From the NCBI GenBank assembly GCA_029572935.1, contig JAKQHM010000010.1, positions 10,218 to 74,217 on the forward strand: a DNA stretch of 64,000 nucleotides, written 5' to 3'. Position 1 is the stretch's first letter, and the number at the start of each line of letters is the position of its first letter. The notes under the pieces were generated by a model, which searched no databases, was not told where the DNA came from, and was given only the letters and a program-made list of their open reading frames with translations. The position numbers were made by a program, and so were the translations under genes. Positions 17,825 to 51,051 of the stretch are shown here, one piece after another. The stretch comes from Bacteroidota bacterium. GTDB lineage: Bacteria > Bacteroidota > Bacteroidia > Chitinophagales > Saprospiraceae.

Positions 17825-18225
17825 TGTTTCAGGATCAAATTTATCGAAAAAATTTACATCCGCCATTCTTGAAGTGCACTGCAAAATAATTTTCCGGCAG
17901 CGCAGCCCACCAGGTTACTTTTAAAATAAAAAGTTGCTGTATGGTTTTATATCGCCTCATGATCTTCATCAATAAAAAAAACCTGACCTTTCTGACCTTA
18001 CCGGCGCAGGAACCAGTCAGCGTGCCATGGTTATTAATTTATTTCTGGAGGATCAGGATCGTTTTCCGTGCAATATGAAAACGTAAAAGATGTGATAGGA
18101 CCAGCACATCCTGCTTGGAAATCGAAAACGCATTGAGAAGACAGGAAGTTTGAGTTTCGAAGAAAATCAGTAACTCATTGACATGGAAGTTGAAAACCTT
18201 AGATAGCCTAAAATGCTTAAAATCC

Positions 18226-20510: not shown

Positions 20511-21539
20511 TCAATCTTCCAGGGGATTCGTTTCGATCCAATTTTCTGTTTGCTTGCGCGAACGCTCCACTTTTTCCAGTATTTTATTGAAGAAAAGGCT
20601 TTTGTCCCTTATGTTTCCACCTGAAATTTTAATGGAATTATCAATAATCCGGTTCAGCCATTTTTCTGTATAATCGCAGAGGCGTGGATTAGAGGAGTTA
20701 AGAAAATTTGGATTGTCAAAGGTCGTGTAGACAGCTCTTATGGAATCGCTGTGTACGTATATCAGATTGCCGGTGAAGGCAATTTCATTGTTGTATAACT
20801 GCAATCCTCCGGGGTATTTGGAGCCGCGGATAAAGGGTTCTTTGTTTTGAGACAAACAGGCATCCTGAAGTTTCAGGATCAGCTGTCTGACCTCGTCGTG
20901 CAGTGTGATGGCTTCGTTGGGATCTTTCATCAATCCTGATTCCAGAAAATACCGGATCTGATTGAGGGTATTGTCAAACACGGTCACATTCCATACCTCC
21001 ACACTGTCCATCCTCATATAGGCTGATGAGATCACTTTTAATTTTTCAAGATAGAGTGCATCGGTCTCGTACTCCTTATAATCATAGGCACTCATTTTGA
21101 AGCGGTCATCGCGCCAGTTGATGTTGTAAAAAACATGAAATTTAAATGCAGAAAGTCTCGGAGAGGTGTAGTAATAAAAAATTGGGATCTCCCTGGAGGT
21201 GTAATAAATCACCGGTTGGATGCGCTCTACCCGTTTGATGTCCTGCTCAATAGGAGTAAGATAATCTATGACGTTGCGGACTACTCCGTTGAGCGCCGGA
21301 AAATCAAAATAGATCCTGTCGAGTTGGATTCCCAGCAGATCGTCAATGCTGAACTGATAGTGCTTGCCCAAGAGTGCGATCTCATCGGGACTGAGGGAGG
21401 ATTCTCCCCTTATTTTTTTGTAGGCCGATGACTTTTGAATAAACAGGATGGAAGCAATATCATCGACCATATTCTTTTTCTCTGCATACCTCGTTCGCTC
21501 AATATAGGAAAAGATTTCGGCTGTAAGTTTATCAGGCAT
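20511..21539 (-). CDS. Putative transcriptional regulator with an N-terminal helix-turn-helix and a large uncharacterised C-terminal domain
   Basis: 342 aa. The N-terminus DDIASILFIQKSSAYKKIRGESSLSPDEIALLGKHYQFSIDDLLG looks like an XRE/BetR-type HTH. The remainder is unassigned. Confidence 0.45.
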   Translation of the reverse strand: MPDKLTAEIFSYIERTRYAEKKNMVDDIASILFIQKSSAYKKIRGESSLSPDEIALLGKHYQFSIDDLLGIQLDRIYFDFPALNGVVRNVIDYLTPIEQDIKRVERIQPVIYYTSREIPIFYYYTSPRLSAFKFHVFYNINWRDDRFKMSAYDYKEYETDALYLEKLKVISSAYMRMDSVEVWNVTVFDNTLNQIRYFLESGLMKDPNEAITLHDEVRQLILKLQDACLSQNKEPFIRGSKYPGGLQLYNNEIAFTGNLIYVHSDSIRAVYTTFDNPNFLNSSNPRLCDYTEKWLNRIIDNSIKISGGNIRDKSLFFNKILEKVERSRKQTENWIETNPLED

Positions 21540-31034: not shown

Positions 31035-34000
31035 TTACATTTTTACGATCCTGATCTTACCCACCTGACCATCCTGACTCATCCAACTGGCCAGATAGAG
31101 ACCTGGAAGAAGGTCGCCTGCTTCGATCCGGTATTCAGTCAACCCAGGCCGGCAACTAAAGCTCTTCACCACCTTGCCACCGAGGTCAATTATCTGAAAA
31201 TGAAGTGGGGATGAAACGGGTTCTGAGAACCTCAGGGACAAATGATCTGAGAATGGCTGCGGGACCAGGCTCATCCATCCGGAATCTGATACATCCTGAG
31301 TTGAGGTGGCAGCTTCGCGGATCACAATGTTGTCCATCAGGGCAAAATCGCTTTTCTCCTCCTCAGGGGTTCCTGAAGGATCCAGTTCGCCCGTGATGGC
31401 TAGTGTCTGGATTTCCACCAGTTCAGTACCGTCGGGTATGGAAAGGGATATTTTTTCCTGTATCAACTGCCTGCTGGCTTTGCGAATGAATTCAGTCCCA
31501 AGGATCTGGCCCTCTGTATTTCTGAAAATCACTCTGCTGATCACAGCAAATTCGGGATCAATCCCCAGGGTACTGTAATCCTGATCTCCTAATTTTTGAA
31601 TCAGATCAAACTCCAGGAGCGGGTCAGACATTCCCTGGGTCTGGGCACACAAAAATACAGAAGTGACAAAGCGACTGTTGTTGTTCATAAAGGCAGCAGG
31701 ATCGGGATTGGTCCTGATCCGGGTCTGACCATTTGCCTCAAAGGCGGAACTGCCGGAAATGATTAAATAGCCTTCTCTCGGTTGACCGGGACCGGGAATT
31801 TGATGAAGACCAAAAGAATCCGTAAAAATCTGGATCTTTTCCCTGTTGTACGTTCCGTTTGTGAAGCTCTCCGGTTCGTCGCGGAAGGTATAATCAGCAA
31901 ACACGATCTGAAATCCTGCCTGGTTGTTGTTTAAAAAGGTATCTAGCGGCCAGACCAGACGAGCTGCTACCGTTTTGACACCAAAGAAATTTCTGGGTAT
32001 CTGAAAAGCTGAAGGTCTAAGCTGCAAGCCGGGATAGAGCGACCGGTTGGTCGTAAATTCATAGACGGCCAGGCTGTCATCAAATTTCATTTCCATTCTC
32101 AATTTACTGCCTGGAGGCACAACGGTACAGCCATTGTATGCAGCAACCAGGGATGCCCGATAGCCTTCAGCACTGGAAGGACAAGCAGAACCTGTCAGGG
32201 TAATCCGGACTATGTTGAAGTCGTGCTCCGTTGCATTCGGGTTCCGGGATAGCAAAAAAGTATAACGGTTATTGCTTGTGTCGCTGTCGCTGATCCCCTC
32301 CATTCGCACTGTAAACCGGACACCCCCTGCTCTGGTGATGACAGGTCTGGTTGAAAAGTTAAACAGAAAATAATCTCCGGGCGCCAGGCTGCGATCCAGG
32401 GTAAAATTTTCAGATACCGGTGGCAGGTTATCCTGTTGATAGGAAGCGGTAAACTGTGTGCCCGCAGGAATACTGACCGTACAGGAGTGGTTGATCAGCC
32501 TCGTGGGCAAATCCACACTGCCATCTTTACAAACCGTATATAATATCCTATCGGTCACCAGTTGAAGATCGTTCTCATTGGGGCCAGTACCCAATCCGAC
32601 GGCCTTCCATGCTTCAGCTACGTTTTTGTATTGATCTGAACACAGACCCCACCATTGTCCAATCATCTGCATACACAGATTGCGGGCATCCTGATAGGTG
32701 GAAGTTGGGGTCAGGAAATCCCTGAGTAAATGATAGGCAATGAGAGTGGCCGTATCGAAGCCCATGGGCCTCACCTCAAAGGACTGACTGCCTTCGTTGG
32801 TACCCTTTCCGCCTGAACAAAGTAAATAATACCAGTAATTGAGCACGCCGCTGTTGCTGTGCACCCCTCCATTGTCTGAACTGCTGGCTACCCAGGACCT
32901 GCCCCTGTAATATTTGGGATTGCTGAAACGGTTGGGATCCTCCATACTCCTGATGGCGGAGCCTGGGGTGGTGTAGATCTTACCGCCAATGAGCCAGTTG
33001 AAATTGGATTGATCGTAATAATATTCAATGGCCTTTCCAAAGATATCGCTGAAAGCTTCGTTGAGGGCACCTGATTCGTACAAATATTCCAATCCAGCAG
33101 TGAATTGTGTCACTCCGTGAGCGAATTCATGACCGACGATGTCCACGCTGGTGAAAGGAAGAACAGTGGTGCCATTGCCCAGACCAAAGTTCAGTGTTCT
33201 GAGATTGCCATCCCAGAATGCATTGCTGTATTTTCCGGTATCGAGCAAAATAGCCCTCGTGACCAGTCCGGCACCGTTCGCACCAATTCTGCCGTATCTG
33301 TTTTCAAAAAAATCATGAGTGACCTGTAAGCCCCAGAACAGATCATACACACCGTTTTTCTGGTCTGCGGAGCCTGCTTCCCAGTTGTTGTCGTCATCTG
33401 TATAAACCGCGCCATTCACTCCCTGCACCTGAATACCTCCTCCACGACTTTGGTCCCTGGTAACATACAGATTGTTTTCCCGGTCCGTTTCCACATCTTG
33501 CACTCCATGATAGAGTGTGTGCATGGTGCCAGGTTCTCCTGCGCAACTCATCAGGGTATTAATGTCGAGCAAAACACTTCCGTTTCGGGCATCAACGTAC
33601 ATCCTGCGACTTAAATGGGGTTCTTCCAGATGAATGTGCAACTCCCAGGCCAGCATATATGCACCCCCTGCCAATGGATAATTGCGGTTGATCAGGACGA
33701 GGCGATCTTCTGCGTCACTGTGACCGCTCAAATCATTTCTGGAAACAAACGGGATGGCCAAAAATTGCAGAGCTTTGGACTGAGCCGCTTCCCGGCTCAG
33801 AGCCGGGGTGAAAACCTCATCCTGAGGAGGAGCCACCAAGCCATTCACAGAGATCAGTTCTCCGTTTTTCTCGTGCACGATCAGTTGGCCGCCCAGCACG
33901 GGAAAGCCCTGAATCCATTGACTCATCCTGTGGTGACGCACGGCAGATTGATCGGTATAGACCTGCTTTGATTGCCATACTGCATCCATGGGAAAAATTT

Positions 34001-34175
34001 CATGAATGAGCAGGGGGATATCCTTTTCGGAAACCTTTTGGCCTTCCTCAAAACGGACCATCCATTGATCAGAATCCCCAGATGGATTGTTCTCCACATG
34101 ATAACGAAATTGAGCCTGAAGGAATGAGAACAAACCCAGACAAGCCGGCAGAACCAGTAGTAATTTTTTCATCAT
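31035..34175 (-). CDS. M4 (thermolysin-like) zinc metallopeptidase with a long C-terminal extension and a T9SS sorting domain
   Basis: 1046 aa with a signal peptide. The catalytic motifs are VGHEFAHGVT (HExxH), GALNEAFSDIFG and GGVHSNSGV. About 430 aa of beta-rich sequence follows, with CARDB-like strings (SDSDTSNN). The CTD is SLVPQPFSDHLSL...GLYLASW...IRIVKM. Confidence 0.85.
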   Translation of the reverse strand: MMKKLLLVLPACLGLFSFLQAQFRYHVENNPSGDSDQWMVRFEEGQKVSEKDIPLLIHEIFPMDAVWQSKQVYTDQSAVRHHRMSQWIQGFPVLGGQLIVHEKNGELISVNGLVAPPQDEVFTPALSREAAQSKALQFLAIPFVSRNDLSGHSDAEDRLVLINRNYPLAGGAYMLAWELHIHLEEPHLSRRMYVDARNGSVLLDINTLMSCAGEPGTMHTLYHGVQDVETDRENNLYVTRDQSRGGGIQVQGVNGAVYTDDDNNWEAGSADQKNGVYDLFWGLQVTHDFFENRYGRIGANGAGLVTRAILLDTGKYSNAFWDGNLRTLNFGLGNGTTVLPFTSVDIVGHEFAHGVTQFTAGLEYLYESGALNEAFSDIFGKAIEYYYDQSNFNWLIGGKIYTTPGSAIRSMEDPNRFSNPKYYRGRSWVASSSDNGGVHSNSGVLNYWYYLLCSGGKGTNEGSQSFEVRPMGFDTATLIAYHLLRDFLTPTSTYQDARNLCMQMIGQWWGLCSDQYKNVAEAWKAVGLGTGPNENDLQLVTDRILYTVCKDGSVDLPTRLINHSCTVSIPAGTQFTASYQQDNLPPVSENFTLDRSLAPGDYFLFNFSTRPVITRAGGVRFTVRMEGISDSDTSNNRYTFLLSRNPNATEHDFNIVRITLTGSACPSSAEGYRASLVAAYNGCTVVPPGSKLRMEMKFDDSLAVYEFTTNRSLYPGLQLRPSAFQIPRNFFGVKTVAARLVWPLDTFLNNNQAGFQIVFADYTFRDEPESFTNGTYNREKIQIFTDSFGLHQIPGPGQPREGYLIISGSSAFEANGQTRIRTNPDPAAFMNNNSRFVTSVFLCAQTQGMSDPLLEFDLIQKLGDQDYSTLGIDPEFAVISRVIFRNTEGQILGTEFIRKASRQLIQEKISLSIPDGTELVEIQTLAITGELDPSGTPEEEKSDFALMDNIVIREAATSTQDVSDSGWMSLVPQPFSDHLSLRFSEPVSSPLHFQIIDLGGKVVKSFSCRPGLTEYRIEAGDLLPGLYLASWMSQDGQVGKIRIVKM

Positions 34176-36607: not shown

Positions 36608-36709
36608 GGTGACTTGAGTGGCAACTGAAATACTCAGCATGGGAAAGGGTATGAATCCACTTTAAGTTCATCACCCGTTGTTTTTTGACCTTCCTTAGTG
36701 GACTGTCCG

Positions 36710-36717
36710 TATTTTTG
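36710..36717 (+). promoter_or_regulatory. -7 promoter box (TATTTTTG) 4 nt before the aminotransferase ATG
   Basis: TATTTTTG-TGAG-ATG (ATG at 36722), a leaderless-type spacing. Confidence 0.45.
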
Positions 36718-36721
36718 TGAG

Positions 36722-38218
36722 ATGGAAAACCACTTCAGGAAATTCAGAGAGGGCATTATCGGTATCGATCACAGTTTCGTCAACCCCTATGGAGAGACCA
36801 AAAGAATCGTATATGCTGACTGGACAGCCAGTGGCAGGATGTATGCACCTATAGAGCGCACCTTCCTCGAAGAAATCTATCCCTACGTGGCCAACACCCA
36901 CACGGAAACCAACAGTACGGGCAAACTGATGACCCAGGCTTATCATGAAGCCTTGCATACGATCAAAAAGCATGTCCACGCTTGCCCCGAAGATGTGATC
37001 ATTTCTTCGGATTCCGGCATGACCGGGGTCGTCAATAAATTTCAGAGAATCCTGGGCCTGAGGATACACGAAAAATTCAAACCCCTCGTGAATCTGAAAG
37101 AGGAGGAGCGACCGGTGGTGTTCATCACGCACATGGAACATCATTCCAATCAGACGAGCTGGCTGGAAACCCTGGCAGATGTGGAAATCATCAGGCCTGA
37201 TGAAAACGGACTGGTCGATCTCGGGCATTTTGCTGAATTGCTCCAGCGGTACCGCAACAGGGAATTCAAGATCGCAGCTGTGACTGCATGTTCCAACGTG
37301 ACCGGCATTCAGACGCCCTATCACACCATCGCCAGGATGATCCACAAGGAAGGAGGCTGTTGCTTTGTCGATTTTGCGTGCAGCGCTCCTTATGTTTCCA
37401 TCGACATGCATCCACCTGCCGAAGGCGAACACCTGGATGCGATCTACTTTTCTCCGCACAAATTCCTGGGAGGTCCGGGTTCGACAGGTATCCTCATTTT
37501 TCACAAGAAATTTTATAAAAACCGCATTCCAGACCATCCGGGAGGCGGGACCGTACTCTGGACCAATCCATGGGGTGAGCACCGCTATTACGACGATATA
37601 GAATCGAGGGAGGATGGTGGCACACCAGCCTTTTTGCAAACCATTCGGGCTGCACTGGCTGTAAAATTGAAAGAAGAAATGGGAGTAGATCCCATCCGGG
37701 AGCGAGAGCAATCCATGGTGGCCAGGATCTGGCCTGAGATCAATTCCATTCCGGGCCTGCATGTGCTTGAACCCGAAAAAGATCATCGACTGCCCGTTAT
37801 TTCATTTTATATCGATGGCCTGCATTACAACATGGGTGTGAAATTGCTCAACGACCGGTTCGGCATCCAGGTACGAGGAGGCTGCTCTTGCGCCGGCACC
37901 TACGGTCATTACCTTCTTCACATCGAAAGAGAATATTCTCATCATGTAACCTGTTTGATTGACCAGGGCAACTTTTCTGAAAAAGCCGGTTGGATCCGCA
38001 TGTCCCTGCACCCCACCAATACCGAAGAGGAAATGGACTTCATACTCGAAGCGATACGGGAACTCGCCCGCAAACATGCATCCTGGAGCGATGACTACCG
38101 CCTCGACAGAATCAACAATGAGATCTCATTTAAGAATCCAAACAGGGACAACTGGTCTTCCGAAAGGATAAAAGGACTCTTTCATTCTGAAAAAGCCCCA
38201 GTCATTCATAATTTATAG
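36722..38218 (+). CDS. Aminotransferase class V-fold PLP-dependent enzyme (cysteine desulfurase/selenocysteine lyase-like)
   Basis: Start at the internal ATG 36722 (MENHFRKFREGIIGID). The PLP-lysine context is YFSPHKFLGGPGSTGILIF and HHSN is present. Confidence 0.8.
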   Translation: MENHFRKFREGIIGIDHSFVNPYGETKRIVYADWTASGRMYAPIERTFLEEIYPYVANTHTETNSTGKLMTQAYHEALHTIKKHVHACPEDVIISSDSGMTGVVNKFQRILGLRIHEKFKPLVNLKEEERPVVFITHMEHHSNQTSWLETLADVEIIRPDENGLVDLGHFAELLQRYRNREFKIAAVTACSNVTGIQTPYHTIARMIHKEGGCCFVDFACSAPYVSIDMHPPAEGEHLDAIYFSPHKFLGGPGSTGILIFHKKFYKNRIPDHPGGGTVLWTNPWGEHRYYDDIESREDGGTPAFLQTIRAALAVKLKEEMGVDPIREREQSMVARIWPEINSIPGLHVLEPEKDHRLPVISFYIDGLHYNMGVKLLNDRFGIQVRGGCSCAGTYGHYLLHIEREYSHHVTCLIDQGNFSEKAGWIRMSLHPTNTEEEMDFILEAIRELARKHASWSDDYRLDRINNEISFKNPNRDNWSSERIKGLFHSEKAPVIHNL

Positions 38219-39100: not shown

Positions 39101-39141
39101 AAAAATAAAGAACGTTTCCCGTCGGTGACAGAAAACGTTCT
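39101..39141 (-). terminator. Intrinsic terminator closing the 48098-39204 operon
   Basis: AGAACGTTT (39109-39117) pairs with AAACGTTCT (39133-39141) around a 15-nt loop. On the minus strand it is followed by TTATTTTT. Confidence 0.65.
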
Positions 39142-39203
39142 TGACGTTATCTAATTAACTAATAACTTAATTCAGATCCATTTGGTTCCGCTTGAGACCA
39201 GAA

Positions 39204-40268
39204 TTAGAAATTCAGGCCTACTCCAATGGAATGGGATCCCTGAAAGGGGTTTGAATGGCGGTATCCGTAATCCAAACTCAACATGTTGTTTCCTTTTTTA
39301 TCTAAGGGAACATTGAGACTGGCTCCGGCAGCCAGGCCGGTGAATGCATTGTCACCTGCCCCTGCAGAATCACCCAATTCATAAGCATAGGAAGCGCGCA
39401 ACCCGAGGTATTCGCGGAATTTAAATTCGCCACCTACTCCGATCACATCTCTTCCAAAAGAATTGGAAGTAAAATTAGCGACTGGTGCCAGGACGAGATT
39501 CTCCCCGAAAATAAAATCGTAAGAAAGTCCGATATGCAAAAGAGAAGGAAGCTCAAAGCGTGACAACCTCACATCATAGGTAAGAGAGGTCCCTTCCGGA
39601 CTGGTCAATTGAGTAGAAAGACCATCGCCGCTAAACTTCATGGGGCTTCCAATATTACGGACTGCGATTCCCATTTTAAAATTATTCTGAGGCCCGGTGA
39701 CGTACTGTACACCGCCATCGATGCCAAATCCAAAAGCACTCAGGTCAGAAATACTTTCTGCAACACCTCTGACGAGTACTCCTACTGAAACCTTTTCTCC
39801 GAAATTGTGTGCATAACCCAAACCAAGGTTAAAGAAGTTTGGCTTGTAGGTAGCACCTGTTCCTTCGGGAGAAGCTGTAGTGGTGACCCTTATTTCCCCC
39901 AGGTCCAAAGCCATCAATTCAAAACCAAAGGCTCCATTTTCACCCACACGGGTGGCATAACCAAAAGCATTCACGCTTACGCCACTCGGAACGAGCCACC
40001 GGGTGTGACCTATCATGGCTTCAGACTTACGGATGCGTCCGATCCCTGCTACATTGACGCGGAGTGCTTCTACTCCACGTACATAGGAAGCGTTGAGCGA
40101 ATTCATGGCCATCCCTTTTGCCCAGGGATTGATCAGGAGTTCATAAGCTCCGGCTTCACCCTGTCTGTCGGGATTACCGGCCCACAACGTAGAATTTCCA
40201 AGACCGGCCAAGATCACAAAAAGAATGAGTATAGATTTTTTCATTTTTTCTTTTTTATTCTTGTTCAA
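39204..40268 (-). CDS. PorV/PorQ-family-like outer-membrane beta-barrel
   Basis: 354 aa (alternative start ATG 40244, MKKSILILF). It has a signal peptide, the N-terminal segment GEAGAYELLINPWAKGMAMNSL and alternating beta-strands. The terminal ..IGVGLNF has the aromatic C-terminus of OM barrels. It lacks the FSQY motif of PorP/SprF. Confidence 0.55.
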   Translation of the reverse strand: MNKNKKEKMKKSILILFVILAGLGNSTLWAGNPDRQGEAGAYELLINPWAKGMAMNSLNASYVRGVEALRVNVAGIGRIRKSEAMIGHTRWLVPSGVSVNAFGYATRVGENGAFGFELMALDLGEIRVTTTASPEGTGATYKPNFFNLGLGYAHNFGEKVSVGVLVRGVAESISDLSAFGFGIDGGVQYVTGPQNNFKMGIAVRNIGSPMKFSGDGLSTQLTSPEGTSLTYDVRLSRFELPSLLHIGLSYDFIFGENLVLAPVANFTSNSFGRDVIGVGGEFKFREYLGLRASYAYELGDSAGAGDNAFTGLAAGASLNVPLDKKGNNMLSLDYGYRHSNPFQGSHSIGVGLNF

Positions 40269-40320: not shown

Positions 40321-43300
40321 TTACAATCCGGAGGGGTCAAACTTCCTTGCCACACCAAACCACTTTACAATTTTCTCAGCACCCGTATCGGGTTGCTTGA
40401 TATAGATCAGATAAGCCCCGCTCGAAACCGGAATGCCCCTGAAATTTGTCAAGTCCCACTCGATATCCGGACCGATTTGTCGTTCGGTCACACCTCTGAA
40501 TTCGCTGACCACTCGCACAGGTTTTTCATCCCGATTGTATTCCTTGATGAATTTTCCATCGATAGAATAAATGGTCACCTGACACTTTGGTGGCAGATTG
40601 GTAATCTTGACGATATTGGAAAACTGACCGGATTCGTAGCTGGAGAAACCATAATACGGGTTGGGGACCACATTTACATTGTCCAGTGCGTTTTCATATT
40701 CTTCTTTGGTAGCCACCGCTCCGGCCTGCTTTCCTTCAATTTTAAAGGAATACATATTATGGCCCAAATTCTGATTGGTACCCACCGTAGGATTGTAGGG
40801 GTTATCTACCCTCAATCTGACGATGTAATCGTTGGGGATCAATCCTGTTTCTCCACTGCCGTAAGCGTTCAGCTTGGTACCAGGAGCCATTAATGGCATG
40901 GTGGTCCAGGTAATGAAGTCTCTGATCGCGCGGGTCAACAAGGCGGTTCCGGATCTTTTGCCTGGATTAGTATTATTGGCTAAAAATCCTCTGATCGCCC
41001 TGCAGGAATCATAAGGTGACCTGGTTACATAAACATAATGGTGACCTCCAAAAATCAGGCCCAGCAAGGACTGACTAAGTCCACATTCAGGATCCAAAAC
41101 TATCTGATCAGTAGGATTCCACATCAGATCATCACCGAGATTGCTCTGTTCGTTGATACAAGGAGCAGCAAGAAGGTTGACATCAGAGAAGAATGTATTT
41201 TCACCGAAGAAAATATTCAACCTTCTTCCGGTTTCCACATCGACCGCGTATCCAGGGAACCAGCCCATTCCGGTCAAGGGTCTGCCACTGCCATCCAGCT
41301 CGCCATCCGGATCGGCATAGCCATCTCCATCACGGTCATATTTACCTACGGAAGGTTTGGTCTTCAAGGAAAAGCAGTCATTTCCTGTATTGGGTTCAGT
41401 CCTTGCACTACCGGGATCTGCGTTGTTCTCATTCCATGTCTCGATCACCACACAACGGGACCATTTGGATTTATCGGAAGTGAAAACTATGTCGACATTG
41501 TTCAGGGAATCCAGCCTCATGGCATTGGAAGGAGTCCTGTTGGCACCGTTGGTCAGAGCAGGAGTAAGCAGTACAGTATCCACACAGAGTTTATAGGGGT
41601 ACCAGAATCCGCGGTACTCGTCTTTGCCCAATTTGCTGAACAACTCTTGTGGATCGAGAGCATACTGCAGCGATCCCAATGAAGTTTTCATGAAATCCGT
41701 GAAAGGCGTGTTGAAATCTGCCTGAGCGATAAACCACTCCACTCCATTGGGATTTTTATACTCAGCTTCCAGACCCGGGCCGATGATACCGTTTGATTCC
41801 AAAGGATTCTTTCCGGCCTCTTCCGTCTGAACCATTCCGACGGATATTCCCAGTTCGGAAATGATCTGCTCATTGAATCTGCTGATAGGACCTGTTGATT
41901 GAATTACTTTAGCCGGATCTGCCAGATTTTTCAGCGTCCAGGTCACAGGATCATCCAGTTTGTTGTTGTCCGGGATGGCATCCACAAATCTCACTTCATA
42001 TTCACCATCCTTTACTTTCAGCGGGTTGACCACTTTCACCTGTATGGGAGCCGATCCCGGTTGGTACTCTACTTTGCCGCCAAAACTTCCATCGAGAATT
42101 TTGTCATACATGCCATCTGCCAGTCGAAGGAAATTACCACCAGCACCCAAACCATCCAAACGGGTTACAGGGAGACCCTCACCGTACTTGGAATTAACGT
42201 TTTCATAGATCTGGGGTCTTGGCGTGACGACATAAGGTTTTCCATCGCCCCTGGGTCCAACATTCAGACGTCCCAGGCAGTATTGTATTCTTTGTCCTGA
42301 ACTTTCCTTGACGTCGTAATCCTTGTAGTTGTTGTAACTGTAGGCTACTACCAGGAAATAGTACTTTTCGTGGTTGACCAGTTGTTTGTTCAGGCCTGTA
42401 GCAAAAAGGTCTTCCTTTATGCTGAAAGAGTGTCTGATTCCTTCATCCAAACCACTCACTCTCTCTACGGGATAATAAACGATAGGATGCGTGACACTTG
42501 GATTGGGGTTTCTGACGCCGACCCAGTCGTACACCTTTTTTACCTTGTTCTTCAGGTCAACCGTCACCACTTCTCTTACGAGGCTGGGATCATTGAGTGC
42601 CCTGTCAGACAGGGAAACATCCGGACCAGACATCTGGAATATTCTGTAACCTTCAAAGCGATACAGTGAATCCACACCCGGAGGAATACCGAGTCCCGGT
42701 TCCATATGGCCTTCGTTAAAGTTGTTGGAAGCAGGATCGTTGCTCAAGAGAATGATGATCTCTTTGTCGAGTTCGACGAAGTCAACATCCGGAGCGGTAG
42801 GTCCATCCTTGATGTCAAAGCAGTTGTCAAACAGATCCTGACAAAGCTGGTCTGCTTTTAACAGTTCATCCAGGGCTGGACAAGGATAGTTCTGGTCAGG
42901 TACCCAAGGCACCCCGATGATCAATTCATTGACAGCGCCCGGATCCAGTCTGAGGGGGCCGGACACCTGCAGGGTCCTCCTGTCTCCTTCTCCTGCGGAG
43001 CTGCTACACATACTCCATCCGGCTCCATCGTTGGGTGCGCCGGGGAAAGCATATCGGGAGGCGGTACCGCCTCCTCCGGGAAGATATCCGATTCCACCAC
43101 TCACCAAATTGGTATTATCCCTCCAGCGGCCGGTGAGGTATTGGTAATATTCCAAAGCACTGGTGGGGTCCTCGGTAGCAGGTGGGTTAGATCCACCGAG
43201 ACCACGACCGTTGTAATACATGAAGTAGCTCATACCGAGCTCATCTCCATTTTCATCGAGGGGGCCACGGAAATAGTCTACACCCAGGATGGGGATATTG

Positions 43301-44427
43301 TTACAATAAGTATTGACGTTCTGATCACAGGTACAACCGTTGCTACCATCCGTTGCATCAATATTGTAGATGTACATGAGATCGCGGAATACAGGCTGAA
43401 ACTGAGTCGTATCAGATAATTTGCGACGCAATCCTACAAAAGTCGTATCGCAACCGATATAGTCATCACTGTAACAACCCAAATCCGGGTCAATCCACAT
43501 GGCGAAGTAACAATCTCTGATTTCCTGAGGAGCCCGGTTAATCAGCTTATACCTCTGGAAAGTCATGTCATTGAGTTCATCAGCCGTTCTGAAGCCGAAT
43601 GCCTGTACTTGTACCTCCATACGGATGGGGTCTCCTCCTGAACTGGTATGGATACCTCCCGCATCGTTGTAGATCCAGAAGATCATTTCGTCCGGATAGA
43701 TCCCGATGGGACATCCCCTGATGTCGATCACGGGATATTCTCCAAACTGGGGTTCATATATTCTGTTGTCGTTGATGTCGTCAAACAAGGCTAGACCCTG
43801 TCTGGCATCAGGTAATTTGAAGCCATATTTTGATTCAAAGAACTCATTGCCTTTGGCCGGCCAATATTCAAGGTCATCGGGAATCTCTGAACGATTGAGT
43901 TGGGACCTTCCTTCGCGTTGTGCGTTGGCCCATCTTTTTCTCAGTTCGGTGATGCTGTCTCCATAACAACGGAAAAACTGATCCCAGTTTTGACAATCTT
44001 CTGCCTGGGTTTCTCCCTGTTCTGTAAGCGGACCAGGCCAGCAATCGTTGCGGGTAGCAGAGCGATAAGTCTGTGCCATCAATTTGAGGGCTCCGGCTGG
44101 ATCGTATCCTCCTACCCACACGGCTCCAGCAAAAATGGAAGAAACTTCCAGCTTACCTGAACCGGCGACCACCTTGGGTACGATATAACGGCCCCTGTTG
44201 AGGTCCCACCAAACGTCCCCACCATTCAATAACCTGGCGCGAACGTTGTTGATATCCTGGTCAATTTGCTTGGTAGCAGGTGAACAGTTACCTTCTCTTG
44301 GCTGAAGCTGCCTGTTGCGCTGGGGTGTCTTGTTCAGATCCTTAGGCTGATGCCCGTATGCCCATGAACCGAGACAAAGGCTCAGAAGGGCCAGGATCAG
44401 GTACTTTTTTACTTGTATCAATTTCAT
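40321..44427 (-). CDS. Very large secreted hypothetical protein with a T9SS-like C-terminal domain; no catalytic domain recognised
   Basis: 1368 aa with a signal peptide (MKLIQVKKYLILALLSLCLGSWAYG). The N-terminal third is Cys-rich and carries a DRDGDGYADPDGELDG calcium-loop-like string. The C-terminus is VVPNPYYGFSSYE..VTIYSIDGKFI..SSGAYLIYI... Confidence 0.6.
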   Translation of the reverse strand: MKLIQVKKYLILALLSLCLGSWAYGHQPKDLNKTPQRNRQLQPREGNCSPATKQIDQDINNVRARLLNGGDVWWDLNRGRYIVPKVVAGSGKLEVSSIFAGAVWVGGYDPAGALKLMAQTYRSATRNDCWPGPLTEQGETQAEDCQNWDQFFRCYGDSITELRKRWANAQREGRSQLNRSEIPDDLEYWPAKGNEFFESKYGFKLPDARQGLALFDDINDNRIYEPQFGEYPVIDIRGCPIGIYPDEMIFWIYNDAGGIHTSSGGDPIRMEVQVQAFGFRTADELNDMTFQRYKLINRAPQEIRDCYFAMWIDPDLGCYSDDYIGCDTTFVGLRRKLSDTTQFQPVFRDLMYIYNIDATDGSNGCTCDQNVNTYCNNIPILGVDYFRGPLDENGDELGMSYFMYYNGRGLGGSNPPATEDPTSALEYYQYLTGRWRDNTNLVSGGIGYLPGGGGTASRYAFPGAPNDGAGWSMCSSSAGEGDRRTLQVSGPLRLDPGAVNELIIGVPWVPDQNYPCPALDELLKADQLCQDLFDNCFDIKDGPTAPDVDFVELDKEIIILLSNDPASNNFNEGHMEPGLGIPPGVDSLYRFEGYRIFQMSGPDVSLSDRALNDPSLVREVVTVDLKNKVKKVYDWVGVRNPNPSVTHPIVYYPVERVSGLDEGIRHSFSIKEDLFATGLNKQLVNHEKYYFLVVAYSYNNYKDYDVKESSGQRIQYCLGRLNVGPRGDGKPYVVTPRPQIYENVNSKYGEGLPVTRLDGLGAGGNFLRLADGMYDKILDGSFGGKVEYQPGSAPIQVKVVNPLKVKDGEYEVRFVDAIPDNNKLDDPVTWTLKNLADPAKVIQSTGPISRFNEQIISELGISVGMVQTEEAGKNPLESNGIIGPGLEAEYKNPNGVEWFIAQADFNTPFTDFMKTSLGSLQYALDPQELFSKLGKDEYRGFWYPYKLCVDTVLLTPALTNGANRTPSNAMRLDSLNNVDIVFTSDKSKWSRCVVIETWNENNADPGSARTEPNTGNDCFSLKTKPSVGKYDRDGDGYADPDGELDGSGRPLTGMGWFPGYAVDVETGRRLNIFFGENTFFSDVNLLAAPCINEQSNLGDDLMWNPTDQIVLDPECGLSQSLLGLIFGGHHYVYVTRSPYDSCRAIRGFLANNTNPGKRSGTALLTRAIRDFITWTTMPLMAPGTKLNAYGSGETGLIPNDYIVRLRVDNPYNPTVGTNQNLGHNMYSFKIEGKQAGAVATKEEYENALDNVNVVPNPYYGFSSYESGQFSNIVKITNLPPKCQVTIYSIDGKFIKEYNRDEKPVRVVSEFRGVTERQIGPDIEWDLTNFRGIPVSSGAYLIYIKQPDTGAEKIVKWFGVARKFDPSGL

Positions 44428-44441
44428 ATATCCGGAAGATT

Positions 44442-47400
44442 TTAGAATTCAAAAATTGCTCCTATGTAAATCCTTCTGGGCAGGGTATAGAAGTCTGGAT
44501 TCAGCAAAGCCCAGTTGTAAGAATCCTGAAAATAACTCAGGTATTGAGCACCATAAGTGTTGGTGACATTATTTAATTCATTGACTCCGCGGGATGAAGC
44601 CAGGTAACCGTCATCGGAAGCACTGCCTGATCCACGATACACACCAATGATGTTTCTCGTATCCAGAAGGTTTTGCACCCTTAAGTAAACGTTGAGGTTG
44701 AGCGGATGCTTGGCCCCTGGTTTGCTGAGAGAAACATATTTGTCCGCACGGAAATCGATATTGAAGTTCCAGGGTAATCTGGCACCGTTGATGTTTCCTT
44801 TGAATCCGGAACCGTCATACCTCACCACTGTAAGACCCGGTGAATAGGGACGTCCGGATGCAGTGATCAACAATAAATTCACACCCGTATTGGCAAAGAT
44901 GTCTACGCCACCAATTCTTGGGCCATTGTATTGTTTTCCGGAACCATAGCGATAATCCGCACTGAAGGAGAATCTGTGTCTTTCATCATAAGTGAAAGGG
45001 AAAATATTTCTGATGTTGATACCTCTTCCGGTCAGACCTTCCTGTGATCTGGCATCTGAACCTGTGCCGTCTGCAAACTGAAGCGTGTAGGCAGCATTGA
45101 ACTGGAAGTTATTGACCCTTCTCAGGTCATAGGTAAAGTTGAATCCCTTTACCGTTCCGAAGTCGAGGTTTCTGAAAGTATTGTACAAACCAACGGTAGC
45201 CACTTTACTCAGAGTGGTGATCTGGATCATATCCCTGAGCTCGTTGTAATAAGCAGAAAAGATAACAGAAGATGAGTTGGTAATCTTTTGCTGGAATCCT
45301 ACTTCGTAATCCACCTTACGGGAAGGTCTCAGGTTGCTGTTGGCGCTCGGCGTACGACCATTGATGTCCCAATAAAGGAAGTTAAGAGGCGTGAGGATGT
45401 TTTCACCCGTTGGTCTTTGAACGATGATATCATAGTGGGCGAAGAAGTTGGCTGCATCAGAAATCGGGAAAGAAAATGCGATACGGGGCATCCAGTTGAT
45501 CTGCGGCACATAGTCCTCAAAGGATTCGTCCACCTTGAAGTTGTTTCCGCGGATGGATCTCAGTGAATCCACTGGCTGGATGTAAGCTGGGTTCACCAGG
45601 TTGTTGTCTCCGAAGATAGCCAGTGAGTTGTTGGCAGGTGTGCCATTTGCAAAATACCACTGATCTCCGTTGCGATAAGCTTTCACATCTTTGGATCCGG
45701 GATCGGTCAGATAGACTTTATAATCATCTCCAATAGTGGAAGGTTTGGTGCTGCCTGTTTGGTCATGGAATGACCTGGCGCCAAGTATACCGTACAAACT
45801 ATAGGGATCTCTGAGCACTTTGGTGTTGGCATCGTAATAATCCACACGTCCTCCTACACGGAAGATGATGTCCTTGTAGGTGAATTTATCCTGCAGATAT
45901 CCTGCAACGTAAATTGGGGAGAAAGGAGCTACCGGGTAAGTCCTTCTTCCGTTAGCATCGCGCGCTGTGAAGAAATCGTCAAAAGTAACCCTGCCGGTTT
46001 GTCTCTTGCCCAGATAATCATAACCATTGAATCCGACAACACCCTGATCTGTCAATTCGCGCAAGGAGAACATATCCAGACTCAGCTGATTGGGGAGGAA
46101 ACGGTCGATGTCGGCATAAAGGTGTTTGGATGAATCAAACGGTACACCCGGGAACTGAAGATCTCTGATCCTTTGATAGAACTGACGATCTGACTGATCC
46201 AGAACCAGGGTATTGAACCTTGGCAAAATAGTAGGCGCACCATTTACATTGACGGTATCGTAGCCAATGATCTGAGTGGAGTCCACCCCTGTAATATGGT
46301 CGTTCTGATACAATCTGCCGAGCCTCCATAGGTCAAACGGAGCCAAAGTGTAACTGCTGTTTACGCTTTGTTCGAAAAGGATACCGAATTGGATGTTGTG
46401 GCGTCCTTTCTTGGATCCTCCCGGGATAAAGTCAAATCCTGAAGTGATTTGAGCGATGTATATATTGTTGTTGAATTGGGTATAGCGGTTGTACACACTT
46501 CCCACATTGGTATGGATACCTGACCAGATATCTGAGAAAGCTGTTGAGATATTTGAGTTAAAAGCCCTGTAGGCCTGGATATTGCCCGTATCTCCCTGGG
46601 GAATTTTGTTGTAATTGCTAAAGGCAGGATTGATCGTGCCTGGTGTATATCGAACAACCCTGTCGATATAACCCACATGGATGAGTTCTTCATTGCGCAC
46701 AGGCAGCCATTCCCTTTGAAATTGTGCCACATGTCCATGATTGAAGAAATTGTCGCCATGTCGGAAGTCTCTTTCTCCCCCTGTCCGGTTTTCATATCCC
46801 AACTGGATGGTGTAATAAGGGTTTTGAATGATGGATAATTTTTTACTGACTTCCTGTCCAGCCAGCGCTTCGGGTGACAGGTCCACCAGTTTGCCCAGCC
46901 TGTGTCTGAATCTCAGGTTTCCCCTCAGGGCCTGACGCTCCTGAATGGGATTATCTACCCAGTTCAGTAGTCTCCAAGATCCTCCTCCGATAAAATCTCC
47001 TCCGGGTGTAAAGCGATTGTTCACATTGGAAAAGGTACCTGAGACAGTCAGGTCGATATTCTGGCTGGGTTTGATGTCCAGTTTACCGGAAATGTCTATG
47101 GCTTCGTTCTGCTCGTTCAGGTTGTATTTGGAAAATTCCACATCCTGTCCTTCCGTAAGGAAATATCCATTGGTCACCGGATTGCCATTGAGCAGGGTGA
47201 TGGGGTCTTGAGTCAGACGGTTAATAGTGGACTCTTTTGCAAAATAGTCTCCGAATGCCGGAGGATCATCATCTTTCAGATAGGTGTACTGTCCTGAAAG
47301 TCTGAATCCAAGCAAGGTTCTATCCTTTTTCTTCCAGATGGGACCCGATACGTTACCACTGATAAAAGTATAACCATAAGGATCCAGATAATTGGAACTT

Positions 47401-48098
47401 TCTGCTTCCAAAGAACCGGCAAACTGAGATGAGGGGCCCTTGGTCACAAGAGAAATGATACCCCCTGTGGCGTCACCATACTGGGGCTCAAGTCCACCTT
47501 TGATCACAGTGACCTGTTCGATATCCACCGCAGAAGGAGCCCTTCCTGTGATCCTTACACCATCCAGAAAATATACCGTTCCATCCGTCCGGGCTCCCCT
47601 GATGGAGATATCTCCTCCGTCTACACTGGAGACACCCGATACTGTGGAGGCGATGGCGTTAATGTTCCTGGTACCCAGGGTTTTGATGTCCTCCGCTGTG
47701 ATGGTCTGGTCACTGGTGGTTTTGTCAATTTCGACAATAGGTTTGCGGTATTCCTTGATCTCAATGGCTTCCAGCTGGACACCCGATGAGATCTCAAAAT
47801 TAACCTTGGTCACTTTGCCACCTGTGACCCTTACGTTCTCAATCCTTTGGATATTGCTTTGGTAACCTGCTTCCACGTTGTAGGTACCGGGATCTACGAT
47901 GATGGAATAGTTTCCGTCAAAGTCTGTGACCGCACCGGTTATCAGAGAGGTACCCTTAAAGACCTTAACATAGGCGTTGATCAGAGGCTCCCCATTGTCT
48001 TTATCTACAACGGATCCTTCGATCTTGGCCTGTGCAAGCAAAACCGGGCCGGAAAAGGCCACAGCAACAAGAAGGATGAAAAATGATCTGAGATTCAT
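44442..48098 (-). CDS. TonB-dependent-receptor-type outer-membrane protein with a CarboxypepD_reg-like N-terminal domain (unusually long)
   Basis: 1218 aa with a signal peptide (..GPVLLAQA). It has KIEGSVVDKDNGEPLINAYVKV..DFDGNYSIIVDPGTYNV and the plug-like ITAEDIKTLGTRNINAIASTVSGVSS..ISIRGARTDGTVYFLDGVRI. The terminal residues are ..YIGAIFEF. Confidence 0.75.
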   Translation of the reverse strand: MNLRSFFILLVAVAFSGPVLLAQAKIEGSVVDKDNGEPLINAYVKVFKGTSLITGAVTDFDGNYSIIVDPGTYNVEAGYQSNIQRIENVRVTGGKVTKVNFEISSGVQLEAIEIKEYRKPIVEIDKTTSDQTITAEDIKTLGTRNINAIASTVSGVSSVDGGDISIRGARTDGTVYFLDGVRITGRAPSAVDIEQVTVIKGGLEPQYGDATGGIISLVTKGPSSQFAGSLEAESSNYLDPYGYTFISGNVSGPIWKKKDRTLLGFRLSGQYTYLKDDDPPAFGDYFAKESTINRLTQDPITLLNGNPVTNGYFLTEGQDVEFSKYNLNEQNEAIDISGKLDIKPSQNIDLTVSGTFSNVNNRFTPGGDFIGGGSWRLLNWVDNPIQERQALRGNLRFRHRLGKLVDLSPEALAGQEVSKKLSIIQNPYYTIQLGYENRTGGERDFRHGDNFFNHGHVAQFQREWLPVRNEELIHVGYIDRVVRYTPGTINPAFSNYNKIPQGDTGNIQAYRAFNSNISTAFSDIWSGIHTNVGSVYNRYTQFNNNIYIAQITSGFDFIPGGSKKGRHNIQFGILFEQSVNSSYTLAPFDLWRLGRLYQNDHITGVDSTQIIGYDTVNVNGAPTILPRFNTLVLDQSDRQFYQRIRDLQFPGVPFDSSKHLYADIDRFLPNQLSLDMFSLRELTDQGVVGFNGYDYLGKRQTGRVTFDDFFTARDANGRRTYPVAPFSPIYVAGYLQDKFTYKDIIFRVGGRVDYYDANTKVLRDPYSLYGILGARSFHDQTGSTKPSTIGDDYKVYLTDPGSKDVKAYRNGDQWYFANGTPANNSLAIFGDNNLVNPAYIQPVDSLRSIRGNNFKVDESFEDYVPQINWMPRIAFSFPISDAANFFAHYDIIVQRPTGENILTPLNFLYWDINGRTPSANSNLRPSRKVDYEVGFQQKITNSSSVIFSAYYNELRDMIQITTLSKVATVGLYNTFRNLDFGTVKGFNFTYDLRRVNNFQFNAAYTLQFADGTGSDARSQEGLTGRGINIRNIFPFTYDERHRFSFSADYRYGSGKQYNGPRIGGVDIFANTGVNLLLITASGRPYSPGLTVVRYDGSGFKGNINGARLPWNFNIDFRADKYVSLSKPGAKHPLNLNVYLRVQNLLDTRNIIGVYRGSGSASDDGYLASSRGVNELNNVTNTYGAQYLSYFQDSYNWALLNPDFYTLPRRIYIGAIFEF

Positions 48099-49721: not shown

Positions 49722-50555
49722 CTATGAATTTAATTTTTCAATAAGGGCTGCAAAGCTAAGCCTTTTTTCAGGATATTTCTCCATCAATTTTTCATACATA
49801 TGGATCGCCTTTTCGCGGTGACCCTGGGCAGCAAGCAAAGCGGCGAGTGTTTCTGAGGCAATTTCTTCTTTAAGTTCCTGGCTTTTGCGTGCCTTTTCAG
49901 CAAATGAACCCTTCATTTCATTGGGCGCAGAACCGGTGAGGCCTGATTTGCCCTTTCGGGAGGTTCCCGGCTTCCCGGATGGCAGGGATTCCAGCCAATG
50001 GTAAAAATCTACTTTTTCTTCGGCTGATTCGGGAGCCTTTGAGACCGCTTTCTTTTTCTGAGCTTCCCTGTTCCGGACAGGCTTTGCCTTTTGTGGAGGT
50101 ACTTCCTGAATAGCCAGACTTTGAATTGCAGGGGCCTGAGGCTTTTCTTCAGGTATTTCGGGAACTTTGGATTCCGTTTCAGGAATTATTTCTTCCTCAT
50201 GGGCATTTCCAAGATCCTGACTTAAGAGGGTCGTTGCCTTCTGAGGAAATACGTCTCCTGTTTCCTCAACTATATGATGTACTGGTTCTTCAGCCTGCTG
50301 GTCGCTTTCCATTTGAAGGTTTTGGGCATGTCCTGTGAGACTTTGCTCGACAAAACCCTGATCAGGCTTAAGGATGTGAGCCTCTCTATTCCAGTCCTGG
50401 GAAAGCAGATAAGCGGCTCTCTGGCCTGTCAATCCATTTGCATTCCAGTCCGCACCTGGGACTTCCAGCAGATAGGGTGCTGCAAGCGGATAGGCTGCGC
50501 GGATCAGATCTGCATCTTCCAGAATGTGTCCTTCAGTTTTTGATTCTTGATTCAT
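49722..50555 (-). CDS. Hypothetical acidic/Pro-rich protein with a TPR-like C-terminal helix pair
   Basis: Start at the internal ATG 50555 (MNQESKTEGHILED), 10 nt after the upstream stop. The C-terminus is LLAAQGHREKAIHMYEKLMEKYPEKR. The middle of the protein is low-complexity. Confidence 0.5.
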   Translation of the reverse strand: MNQESKTEGHILEDADLIRAAYPLAAPYLLEVPGADWNANGLTGQRAAYLLSQDWNREAHILKPDQGFVEQSLTGHAQNLQMESDQQAEEPVHHIVEETGDVFPQKATTLLSQDLGNAHEEEIIPETESKVPEIPEEKPQAPAIQSLAIQEVPPQKAKPVRNREAQKKKAVSKAPESAEEKVDFYHWLESLPSGKPGTSRKGKSGLTGSAPNEMKGSFAEKARKSQELKEEIASETLAALLAAQGHREKAIHMYEKLMEKYPEKRLSFAALIEKLNS

Positions 50556-50565
50556 GGCGGGATGA

Positions 50566-51051
50566 TTACCAGTTTGAAAAAGCCTTGTTGAAAATATCCT
50601 CGAGCAGAAGTTTGTTGACACTGGTCAATAGCCGGGTTTGCTCTGAGCTGAAGTCGAGCGATGCGTCAAAATCCTCGAATCTGGAAAAACTGGCCTCAAA
50701 GTTCTGTTTTTCATTTTTCTTATTGGTCATTTTGACTTTGACCGCGACCGTCAGGCGGTTTACGGCGGCAAAAGATCCCGCCACTGGAGCCTGGGGTGTG
50801 ATGTTGAACTGGGTGATCTGCACATCGAATATCAGATCGGGATCGGTCGGTCTCAGCAACAAACGGGATTCTCTTCGGATCTTGTTGGACAAGGCCTCCT
50901 GAAAATCATTGGAATAGCCTGCCGGTGCGCTGGAGGAAAGGTCCGTGACAGGGGAAACATTGAAAAAATTGATATCCGGGTCAATACTCGTACCCCGGAA
51001 GGAATAGCATCCGGAAAATACCAAAATAAAGACAATCCACACGCCTTTCAT
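50566..51051 (-). CDS. LptE-family lipoprotein (LPS assembly)
   Basis: 161 aa. The lipoprotein signal is ..LVFSGCYSFRG. NRLTVAVKVKMTN...FSRFEDF matches my recollection of the Bacteroidota LptE-like family. The start overlaps the upstream stop (ATGA). Confidence 0.6.
   Translation of the reverse strand: MKGVWIVFILVFSGCYSFRGTSIDPDINFFNVSPVTDLSSSAPAGYSNDFQEALSNKIRRESRLLLRPTDPDLIFDVQITQFNITPQAPVAGSFAAVNRLTVAVKVKMTNKKNEKQNFEASFSRFEDFDASLDFSSEQTRLLTSVNKLLLEDIFNKAFSNW

Follow-up and report, generated by a model that had tools for sequence, protein, structure and literature searches.

Type IX secretion system (T9SS) cargo is known to meet one of two fates: its C-terminal domain (CTD) is removed by PorU, or the CTD is retained on a cognate barrel, as described for PorU on PorV, PorZ on PorQ, and type B cargo with PorP/SprF. 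The CTDs of PorU and PorZ stay uncleaved, with PorZ held by PorQ and PorU by PorV, and such cognate PorV-like barrels have been proposed to shield CTDs from cleavage (PMC10947112, PMC10202324). Type B cargos depend on adjacent PorP/SprF-like barrels (PMC12618676). What determines the retention of a type A-like CTD is an open question in the T9SS field (PMC10202324). Here we describe the gene for a secreted protein of 1368 amino acids (aa), the giant protein, which lies in 64,000 nucleotides (nt) of a genome of the family Saprospiraceae (contig JAKQHM010000010.1, positions 10,218 to 74,217; this whole stretch is hereafter the window, and positions are counted within it). Its CTD resembles those of PorZ and PorU, and the gene stands between genes for a TonB-dependent-transporter-like protein and a PorV/PorQ-family barrel. 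That a retained CTD can have a cognate barrel is already known. For the family of the giant protein, its tail signature, the fold of its body and the link to a TonB-dependent transporter, no description was found in the literature searched or in Pfam, NCBIfam or the PDB.

The gene occupies positions 40321 to 44427 of the minus strand (stop codon at 40321-40323), as established from the list of open reading frames (ORFs) and their translation. An earlier interpretation, made by a model without database searches (the sequence-only reading), gave these coordinates exactly but missed the strand: the plus-strand translation of the interval contains many stops, whereas the minus strand holds an uninterrupted ORF of 1368 codons beginning with MKLIQVKKYLILALLSLCLGSWAYG, in which all the peptide strings quoted by that reading were found. 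A word-indexed search returned more than 2000 homologues, the best 120 of which were 47-80% identical at 97-100% query coverage and, bar one truncated entry, 1308-1380 aa long. The similar length of these homologues and their alignment from end to end show that the ORF does not stem from a frameshifted fusion of smaller genes, an eventuality that had been raised against it. With HMMER, run exhaustively on representatives clustered at 50% identity, the family comprised 6039 clusters at E ≤ 1e-3, of which 1290 also passed E ≤ 1e-30. The members are all named 'hypothetical protein' except for one 'YCF48-related'; a family-profile search for named or model-organism members likewise returned 'hypothetical protein' entries only, and cluster look-ups supplied hardly any names. 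The closest named relative of the giant protein was 79% identical to it, and the named matches belonged to Bacteroidota apart from the partial sequence P0033 (985 aa, 63% identical), which is labelled Vicinamibacterales (Acidobacteriota) and comes from a contig of 2957 nt; as all other named matches are from Bacteroidota, this looks like a binning error and not a cross-phylum case. The entry labelled 'YCF48-related protein' at NCBI (P0253, 1687 aa) carries an inserted YCF48/BNR/sortilin-type beta-propeller segment at aa 996-1104, so that the body in this family tolerates domain insertions.

The C-terminus of the giant protein is a PorZ/PorU-like T9SS beta-sandwich (aa 1241-1354; 40366..40707, minus strand), as identified with NCBIfam and Foldseek. 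The strings that the sequence-only reading had taken for strands of a T9SS CTD were all found: VVPNPYYGFSSYE (aa 1253-1265) is followed in turn by VKITNLP, VTIYSIDGKFI, WDLTN and SSGAYLIYI. When the CTD was scanned alone (the last 123 residues), its best match in NCBIfam was the C-terminus of the PorZ model (E 1.6e-7). This PorZ equivalog, NF052228, was matched at model positions 665-751 of 757 with 26-30 bits, against a cutoff of 260; the PorU model NF033707 was matched in its CTD region only (11.3 bits, E 0.045; cutoff 420), and the type A model TIGR04183 at positions 9-47 of 72 (17.1 bits; cutoff 23). PF18962 was not matched even at E ≤ 10, and the type B model TIGR04131 was matched neither by the whole protein, nor by the CTD alone (E ≤ 10), nor by 33 diverse CTDs of the family. 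The two ordinary T9SS cargos of the window, by contrast, match TIGR04183 and PF18962. The giant protein has the seven-strand C-terminal sandwich of a type A domain but misses the TIGR04183 and PF18962 cutoffs, and what had been termed a variant CTD is PorZ-like first and PorU-like second. Among the 33 family CTDs, the PorZ model was matched by all, TIGR04183 by 30 and the PorU model by 26.

Structural and profile comparisons also led to PorZ and PorU. A profile of the family CTDs reached PorU (E 0.04) and PorZ (E 0.11) in the PDB, with a weaker match to the non-T9SS entry 8suc (E 0.57); single-sequence PDB searches with the whole protein or with the CTD gave nothing useful, so that PorZ and PorU were reached in the PDB by profiles and structure only. 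An AlphaFold2 model of aa 900-1368 (predicted local distance difference test, pLDDT, 80.9) contained a seven-strand sandwich from approximately aa 1241, and Foldseek placed PorZ (5m11) first among the matches to the modelled CTD (E 1.2e-6, 116 columns, 21% identity), followed by PorU (6za2) and 8glk_D, a NucA substrate CTD in the translocon (TMt 0.65), with FlgD Ig-like domains among the weaker matches. A Foldseek match to PorU 6za2 outside the CTD was not credible (root-mean-square deviation of about 30 Å). In the tail-bearing members the CTD and tail had a mean pairwise identity of 45.7%, versus 38.1% for the body, and this excess is unexpected for a disposable signal. The sequence-only reading was right to call this CTD atypical but missed its resemblance to PorZ and PorU, which turns that description into the specific hypothesis of a retained CTD.

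Two segments distinguish this CTD. The first is the loop PNPYYxxSxYE (aa 1255-1265), seen earlier as an NPYYGFSSYE variant, which is invariant in the family and amounts to a 7-residue insert after PNP relative to PorZ. The second is a conserved C-terminal tail, WFGVARKFDPSGL (aa 1355-1368; 40324..40365, minus strand), situated past the canonical CTD end, whose W, F, G, R, F, D, P and L vary little or not at all across 53 homologues. PorZ stops at ...FAVIR, whereas the giant family has KWFGVxR at this place and then 6-7 more residues. Counted from the G-x-Y motif, the giant protein has 29 residues, versus 18 and 19 in the window's canonical CTDs, a difference of 10-11 that agrees with the earlier estimate of about ten. 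A type A domain would end at the last sandwich strand, but here VARKFDPSGL lies beyond that strand; the C-terminus is thus extended as well as below the TIGR04183 cutoff, and not an ordinary CTD of that type. Two versions of the tail occur: members of the Saprospiraceae clade have KWFGVxRxFDPSGL and those of a wider clade KWFGVMRPxDLDx[FY]. About one in six family representatives end as ordinary type A CTDs instead, including P0177, whose canonical CTD matches PF18962 (E 8.4e-9). The monomer model left just two CTD segments unplaced, both at pLDDT values below 50: the loop (here aa 1257-1269) and the tail (here aa 1361-1368). Such an appearance is common for interface segments whose folding depends on binding. 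The high conservation of the CTD, together with the low pLDDT of its loop and tail, points to a role beyond that of a disposable signal.

The genes on either side of the giant gene lie on the same strand. Downstream by 76 nt is the gene for a PorV/PorQ-family outer-membrane barrel of approximately 346 aa (39204..40244, minus strand), the likely start of which is Met9 of a maximal ORF reaching 40268. Its product matched NF033709 at positions 7-326 of 326 (115 bits; cutoff 90), while the PorQ model NF033711 (58.3 bits; cutoff 220) and the PorV model NF033710 (45.9 bits; cutoff 250) were matched over the N-terminal half only. All of 24 barrel orthologues matched NF033709, four of them also matched the PorP/SprF model (best E 3e-9), and a profile built from the 24 found F. 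johnsoniae PorV (6h3i_F) alone in the PDB (E 9.4e-17). Judged by these scores, the neighbor that had been called PorV-like is a member of the PorV/PorQ family and an orthologue of neither PorV nor PorQ. Upstream by 14 nt is the gene for a TonB-dependent-transporter-like outer-membrane protein of 1218 aa (44442..48098, minus strand), with a signal peptide, CarboxypepD_reg and Plug domains, a large barrel and the terminus ...IFEF. Both Pfam domains scored above cutoff (CarboxypepD_reg 46.3 bits; Plug 40.9 bits, cutoff 23.9), the NCBIfam matches to TonB-receptor barrels were weak, and the orthologues at loci L088 and L089 matched PF00593; no SusC/RagA family was among its NCBIfam matches at E ≤ 0.1. 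The Plug domain, the large C-terminal barrel and the aromatic last residue are those of a TonB-dependent transporter, and we describe the protein as transporter-like, with its energy dependence putative. A terminator-like hairpin with a 16-bp stem and a T-run (39108..39142, minus strand) follows the barrel gene and ends the unit before greA, and the spacing of 14 nt and 76 nt and the position of this hairpin suggest that the transporter, giant and barrel genes form a three-gene operon. A sigma-70 promoter scan was disregarded, as it found fewer sites than in shuffled sequence and Bacteroidota promoters differ.

We compared this arrangement across 80 loci from species-representative genomes of Saprospiraceae and Lewinellaceae, including cultured Membranihabitans, Neolewinella and Lewinella strains and metagenome-assembled genomes (MAGs) of Phaeodactylibacter. 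Loci were counted where the sequence left room, which was so for 74 downstream and 66 upstream, and a barrel gene had to lie within 700 nt downstream. A PorV-like gene followed the giant gene at 73 of the 74 loci, the exception being L023, and a transporter-like gene preceded it at 66 of 66. While the sequence-only reading had noticed the PorV-like neighbor, it missed this equally constant upstream gene. The same order of transporter, giant and barrel genes was found at all four loci of distant tail-bearing members (34-39% identity), whose named cluster relatives are Chitinophagales, Sphingobacteriales and unclassified Bacteroidota MAGs; at these loci a 2-hydroxyacid dehydrogenase gene came before the module in three of four, GreA and HIT genes after it in four of four, and RuvC after GreA/HIT in three of four. 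Of five relatives with canonical CTDs (L083, L084, L090, L091 and L092), none had a PorV-like gene downstream, nor did a transporter gene appear on the contig sequence available for any of them. The contrast of 73/74 and 4/4 with 0/5 indicates that the extended CTD, the dedicated barrel and the transporter travel together, and it bears out the proposal that the variant CTD and a private PorV-like partner belong together. The tail and its partner may be causally connected, and the giant protein is putatively a surface protein.

Some loci depart from the simple three-gene arrangement. L023 (2937-11005) holds the transporter-like gene and a giant gene ending in ...KWFGVNRQFDAAGL; the genes downstream are on the opposite strand, two of them with T9SS type A-like ends, and include neither a PorV-like gene nor greA. 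Two or three giant genes occur in tandem at L008 (1539-10933), L010 (5520-15947), L027 (276-8108) and L045 (3-10933), where the extra copies lie past the single PorV-like gene. In the paralogue pairs P0064/P0075 and P0085/P0105 the FDPSGL/FDPSNL tail is kept in every member. As the tandem paralogues all keep the tail, one barrel may serve several giant proteins.

The remainder of the giant protein begins with a Sec signal peptide (aa 1-25; 44353..44427, minus strand), recognized by inspection from its basic n-region, hydrophobic core and AYG end; the homologue consensus contained no conserved lipobox Cys. Next is an N-terminal region (aa 26-540; 42808..44352, minus strand) that is rich in Cys and Asp, beta-rich (AlphaFold2 pLDDT mostly 80-93) and the best-conserved part, with a mean pairwise identity over aa 201-540 (46%) that is the maximum for the body; it probably holds a beta-supersandwich, to judge from the model. 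Of the 24 cysteines, 16 are within the first 536 aa, in keeping with the many N-terminal Cys remarked on earlier in such peptides as DCWPGPL (aa 128-134) and YPCPALDELLKADQLCQDLFDNCF (aa 514-537). In the 53 Saprospiraceae homologues 13 of them are fully or almost fully invariant, and C48 and C145 only are invariant across the wider family. The middle and C-terminal body (aa 541-1210; 40798..42807, minus strand) is beta-rich and then alpha/beta in AlphaFold2 secondary structure, and contains the family-wide invariant motifs SWFPGYAIDVETGxRLNIFFGENS, DMxWNPT and GGxHYIYV. It includes the calcium-loop-like Asp string DRDGDGYADPDGELDGSG (aa 1031-1048; 41284..41337, minus strand), a loop modelled confidently by AlphaFold2, whose core D-x-D/N-G-D-G-x-x-D-x-D is kept in 50-53 of the 53 close homologues and is either shorter or absent in the wider family. 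The string pointed out by the sequence-only reading is therefore real and kept in the Saprospiraceae clade, but no Pfam calcium-binding model matches it, and its role as a calcium-binding loop is plausible and putative. Between body and CTD is a variable linker (aa 1211-1240; 40708..40797, minus strand), with the lowest mean pairwise identity of all regions (22-24%) and pLDDT below 50 over much of aa 1210-1230.

Searches for relatives of the body were negative. A Pfam scan found no domain in the giant protein and none in the bodies of 35 diverse relatives; an NCBIfam scan matched the C-terminus and left the body unmatched, as did PDB sequence and profile searches. A body model (AlphaFold2, aa 26-1225, from an alignment of 53 sequences) was confident, with a mean pLDDT of 80.9 and a predicted template-modelling score (pTM) of 0.60. 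Against the PDB, Foldseek gave marginal matches with E values of at least 6.5e-4 and template-modelling (TM) scores of at most 0.18, to non-catalytic beta-supersandwich domains of GH94/GH116 enzymes and to copper amine oxidases; against viral models it gave FN3-type matches (a phage FN3 protein) and GH65-type N-domain matches only, again with TM ≤ 0.18. As all of these are weak matches of beta-sandwich or FN3 type, we rejected them as evidence of homology or of an enzyme function. The model suggests a multi-domain, mostly beta architecture without a recognized relative. Pfam, NCBIfam, PDB and Foldseek searches thus yielded no confident match to a characterized enzyme or adhesin family, and the description of an unassigned giant protein family stands, there being no model of the body in Pfam or NCBIfam, no PDB relative and, with the one exception given above, only hypothetical names.

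Of the described systems, PorZ-PorQ in the attachment complex of Porphyromonas gingivalis, where PorZ keeps its CTD and is held at the surface by the PorQ barrel (PMC10947112, PMC10202324), is like this locus in its CTD (by NCBIfam, PDB profile search and Foldseek) and in its partner, which here likewise belongs to the PorV/PorQ family and scores higher with the PorQ model than with the PorV model. PorZ differs in being a protein of 776 aa with beta-propeller domains that acts in the delivery of anionic lipopolysaccharide (A-LPS), whereas the giant body has 1200 aa and an unrecognized fold, and in lacking the 7-residue YYxxSxYE insert and the 6-7 extra C-terminal residues. The pair of giant and barrel genes is, moreover, genetically linked and located behind a TonB-dependent transporter gene, and the two proteins miss the PorZ and PorQ equivalog cutoffs widely. 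Orthology with PorZ was rejected because the matches are confined to the CTD and Foldseek of the body did not return PorZ.

PorU-PorV offers a similar likeness, since PorU is large and its retained CTD is bound to a PorV-family barrel (PMC10202324). PorU was the second-best match to the giant-protein CTD, and differs in its C25/gingipain-like peptidase domain. Pfam found no peptidase domain in the giant protein and its resemblance to PorU is confined to the CTD, so that identity with PorU was rejected, upholding the doubt already voiced on that point. In many Bacteroidota porU and porV are adjacent, and the giant gene beside its PorV-family gene recalls this arrangement. Type B cargos such as SprB, with SprF, are alike in having the cargo gene beside the gene of a receiving barrel that fixes its location (PMC12618676, PMC9143113); they differ in that the giant CTD does not match TIGR04131 and its barrel belongs to the PorV/PorQ family. 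With ordinary type A cargo, the giant protein shares the beta-sandwich and the motif order PNP ... I-Y-D-G ... G-x-Y ... K, and it differs in a CTD that is below both cutoffs, longer, better conserved than the body and accompanied by an adjacent barrel gene.

Two further systems resemble the module in layout. As in SusC/SusD, a transporter gene with CarboxypepD_reg and Plug domains is followed by a gene for a large protein destined for the surface, but the giant partner is not a lipoprotein, has no SusD fold, and would be delivered by T9SS and anchored by the barrel of a third protein. IhtA/IhtB of P. gingivalis, considered as an earlier example of a transporter paired with a surface protein, was not used as a T9SS precedent, a review having called IhtB a lipoprotein. 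In BamG-BamH, a 14-strand FadL-like barrel docks a large extracellular protein via a wedged terminal peptide (PMC12578637, PMC12611786). The proteins of that pair differ from those of the module: BamG is in the FadL/Toluene_X family, and BamH, a lipoprotein at the surface, docks through its N-terminus; no sequence relation to BamG-BamH was found, and the likeness is one of analogy. We also rejected a role as a BAM (beta-barrel assembly machinery) accessory, since BamG-BamH and BamP/BamM are different families.

In order to account for these observations, we propose that the giant protein is exported by T9SS and keeps an uncleaved CTD docked on the co-encoded barrel, beside the transporter, an explanation that we judge to have about an even chance of being right as a whole. 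The giant protein would cross the inner membrane via Sec and fold in the periplasm, where the conserved Cys and Asp-rich loops suggest a fold stabilized by disulfides and calcium. T9SS would then recognize it by its C-terminal beta-sandwich but, unlike ordinary type A cargo, it would not be handed to PorV and PorU for removal of the CTD. Instead, the dedicated PorQ-like barrel from the gene just downstream would take hold of the PorZ/PorU-like CTD, with the YYxxSxYE loop and the KWFGVxRxFDPSGL tail, the most conserved segments of the CTD and both predicted to lack structure in the monomer, as the specific contacts. The protein, its CTD still intact, would end up docked non-covalently at the cell surface next to the co-encoded transporter, and its 1200-residue body would most likely capture or process a substrate for TonB-dependent uptake. 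A joint function of the three proteins is suggested by the constancy of the transporter gene; in the simplest case the giant protein would be a substrate-capturing surface subunit that feeds the transporter. T9SS is evidently used by this organism, as two cargos with ordinary type A CTDs are encoded within the same 64-kb window. By analogy, the giant protein and its barrel fit as a third, genetically hard-wired case alongside PorZ-PorQ and PorU-PorV.

Several observations weigh against this proposal. Most family CTDs (30 of the 33) also match the type A model, if mostly weakly, and could for that reason be handled as ordinary cargo; the flexible linker that precedes the CTD would make cleavage by PorU physically possible. 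At L023 a transporter gene and a tail-bearing giant gene stand without an adjacent barrel gene. The evidence for an association of the giant protein with the transporter is gene order, and the one clue to the body is its weak resemblance to beta-supersandwich domains.

A broader version of the same idea, which we put forward tentatively as possible, takes the three genes as an unrecognized outer-membrane machine of the core genome in Saprospiraceae and other Bacteroidota. The partner of the transporter would in this case be delivered by T9SS rather than by lipoprotein export and be held by a PorQ-like barrel via its retained CTD, and a code of loop and tail (YYxxSxYE and KWFGVxRxxDxxx[LF]) would decide both whether the CTD is retained and which barrel receives it.

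Alternatively, the giant protein could be ordinary T9SS cargo, whose type A CTD is cleaved by PorU before the protein is released or attached to lipopolysaccharide (LPS), the barrel being no more than a dedicated shuttle for it, or else an outer-membrane protein that is co-regulated but physically unrelated. The matches to TIGR04183 just mentioned (best E 3.2e-7), the fully canonical CTDs of members such as P0177 and the flexible linker are all consistent with this. We nevertheless consider it unlikely, because the giant-protein CTD itself is under the TIGR04183 cutoff and without a PF18962 match, is nearest to two proteins that both retain their CTDs, and with its tail is better conserved than the body, and because the extended tail tracks the barrel gene in the comparison of loci. 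A further alternative is that the giant protein and its barrel are not cargo and receiver but a lineage-specific T9SS attachment or sorting machinery, a counterpart of PorZ-PorQ that might, for example, present an anchor glycolipid to the sortase. That PorZ is the best match to the CTD, that the barrel scores slightly higher with PorQ than with PorV, that the module is usually single-copy, and that across several lineages its core-genome position is a fixed, housekeeping one (PGDH ... GreA-HIT) would agree with such a function. However, the PorZ equivalog matches the CTD only (26 bits versus a cutoff of 260), no beta-propeller body was found and Foldseek of the body missed both PorZ and PorU, known attachment complexes are without the TonB-dependent transporter that is constant here, and the standalone paralogues with ordinary CTDs show that the body can work as plain cargo; we regard this alternative as improbable. 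Finally, it is very improbable that the CTD is a mere Ig/FlgD-like fold and export or surface assembly relies on the co-encoded barrels, for instance by secretion through the transporter-like protein, for although FlgD Ig-like domains were among the weaker matches, a transporter-like gene is always adjacent and Oar, a TonB-dependent transporter of Myxococcus, is reportedly needed for protein secretion, T9SS-specific models come first by both sequence and structure, the partner comes from the PorV/PorQ family of T9SS, every named match of the giant family is in Bacteroidota, and paralogues have bona fide type A CTDs where the giant protein has this domain.

Elsewhere the window contains housekeeping genes (carB, guaB, folC, gyrB/parE-like, HIT-family, PGDH, LptE-like, sigma-54 activator, miaB and rseP). 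The PGDH gene precedes the module, and upstream of it are a weakly TPR-like gene (49722-50621, minus strand) and the LptE-like gene (50566-51051, minus strand; PF04390, E 1.6e-8), whose maximal ORFs overlap by about 55 nt. A 1172-aa protein with many FN3/Ig-like repeats (14366-17884, minus strand) is an ordinary T9SS cargo (TIGR04183, 41.8-46.7 bits), and a 1046-aa M4 thermolysin-like metalloprotease (31035-34175, minus strand) has a weak T9SS type A CTD, with 17.8 bits for TIGR04183 and 24.9 bits for PF18962, both just below cutoff. The 363-aa ORF at 36695-37786 (minus strand), which has no family match, overlaps a class V aminotransferase gene on the plus strand (36698-38218; PF00266, E 3e-43), and we rejected it as a gene since it is most likely a shadow ORF of the latter. 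A 342-aa ORF (20511-21539, minus strand) had no Pfam match at E ≤ 1e-3 and adjoins a VWA/CoxE-like gene (19360-20496, plus strand).

The giant family supplies thousands of natural PorZ-like CTDs that have a conserved loop and tail and are tied to a barrel of their own. Because the family includes both tailed members with a barrel and sister proteins that end in ordinary CTDs and have none, the question of CTD retention becomes directly testable in this family. The analysis also defines a very large unnamed family, of more than 6000 clusters at 50% identity, with an unrecognized fold of 1200 residues, and, through a conserved operon, it links a TonB-dependent transporter with T9SS. Such an arrangement points to a surface complex not described before, in Saprospiraceae and in Bacteroidota related to them; these bacteria abound in aquatic habitats and in activated sludge.

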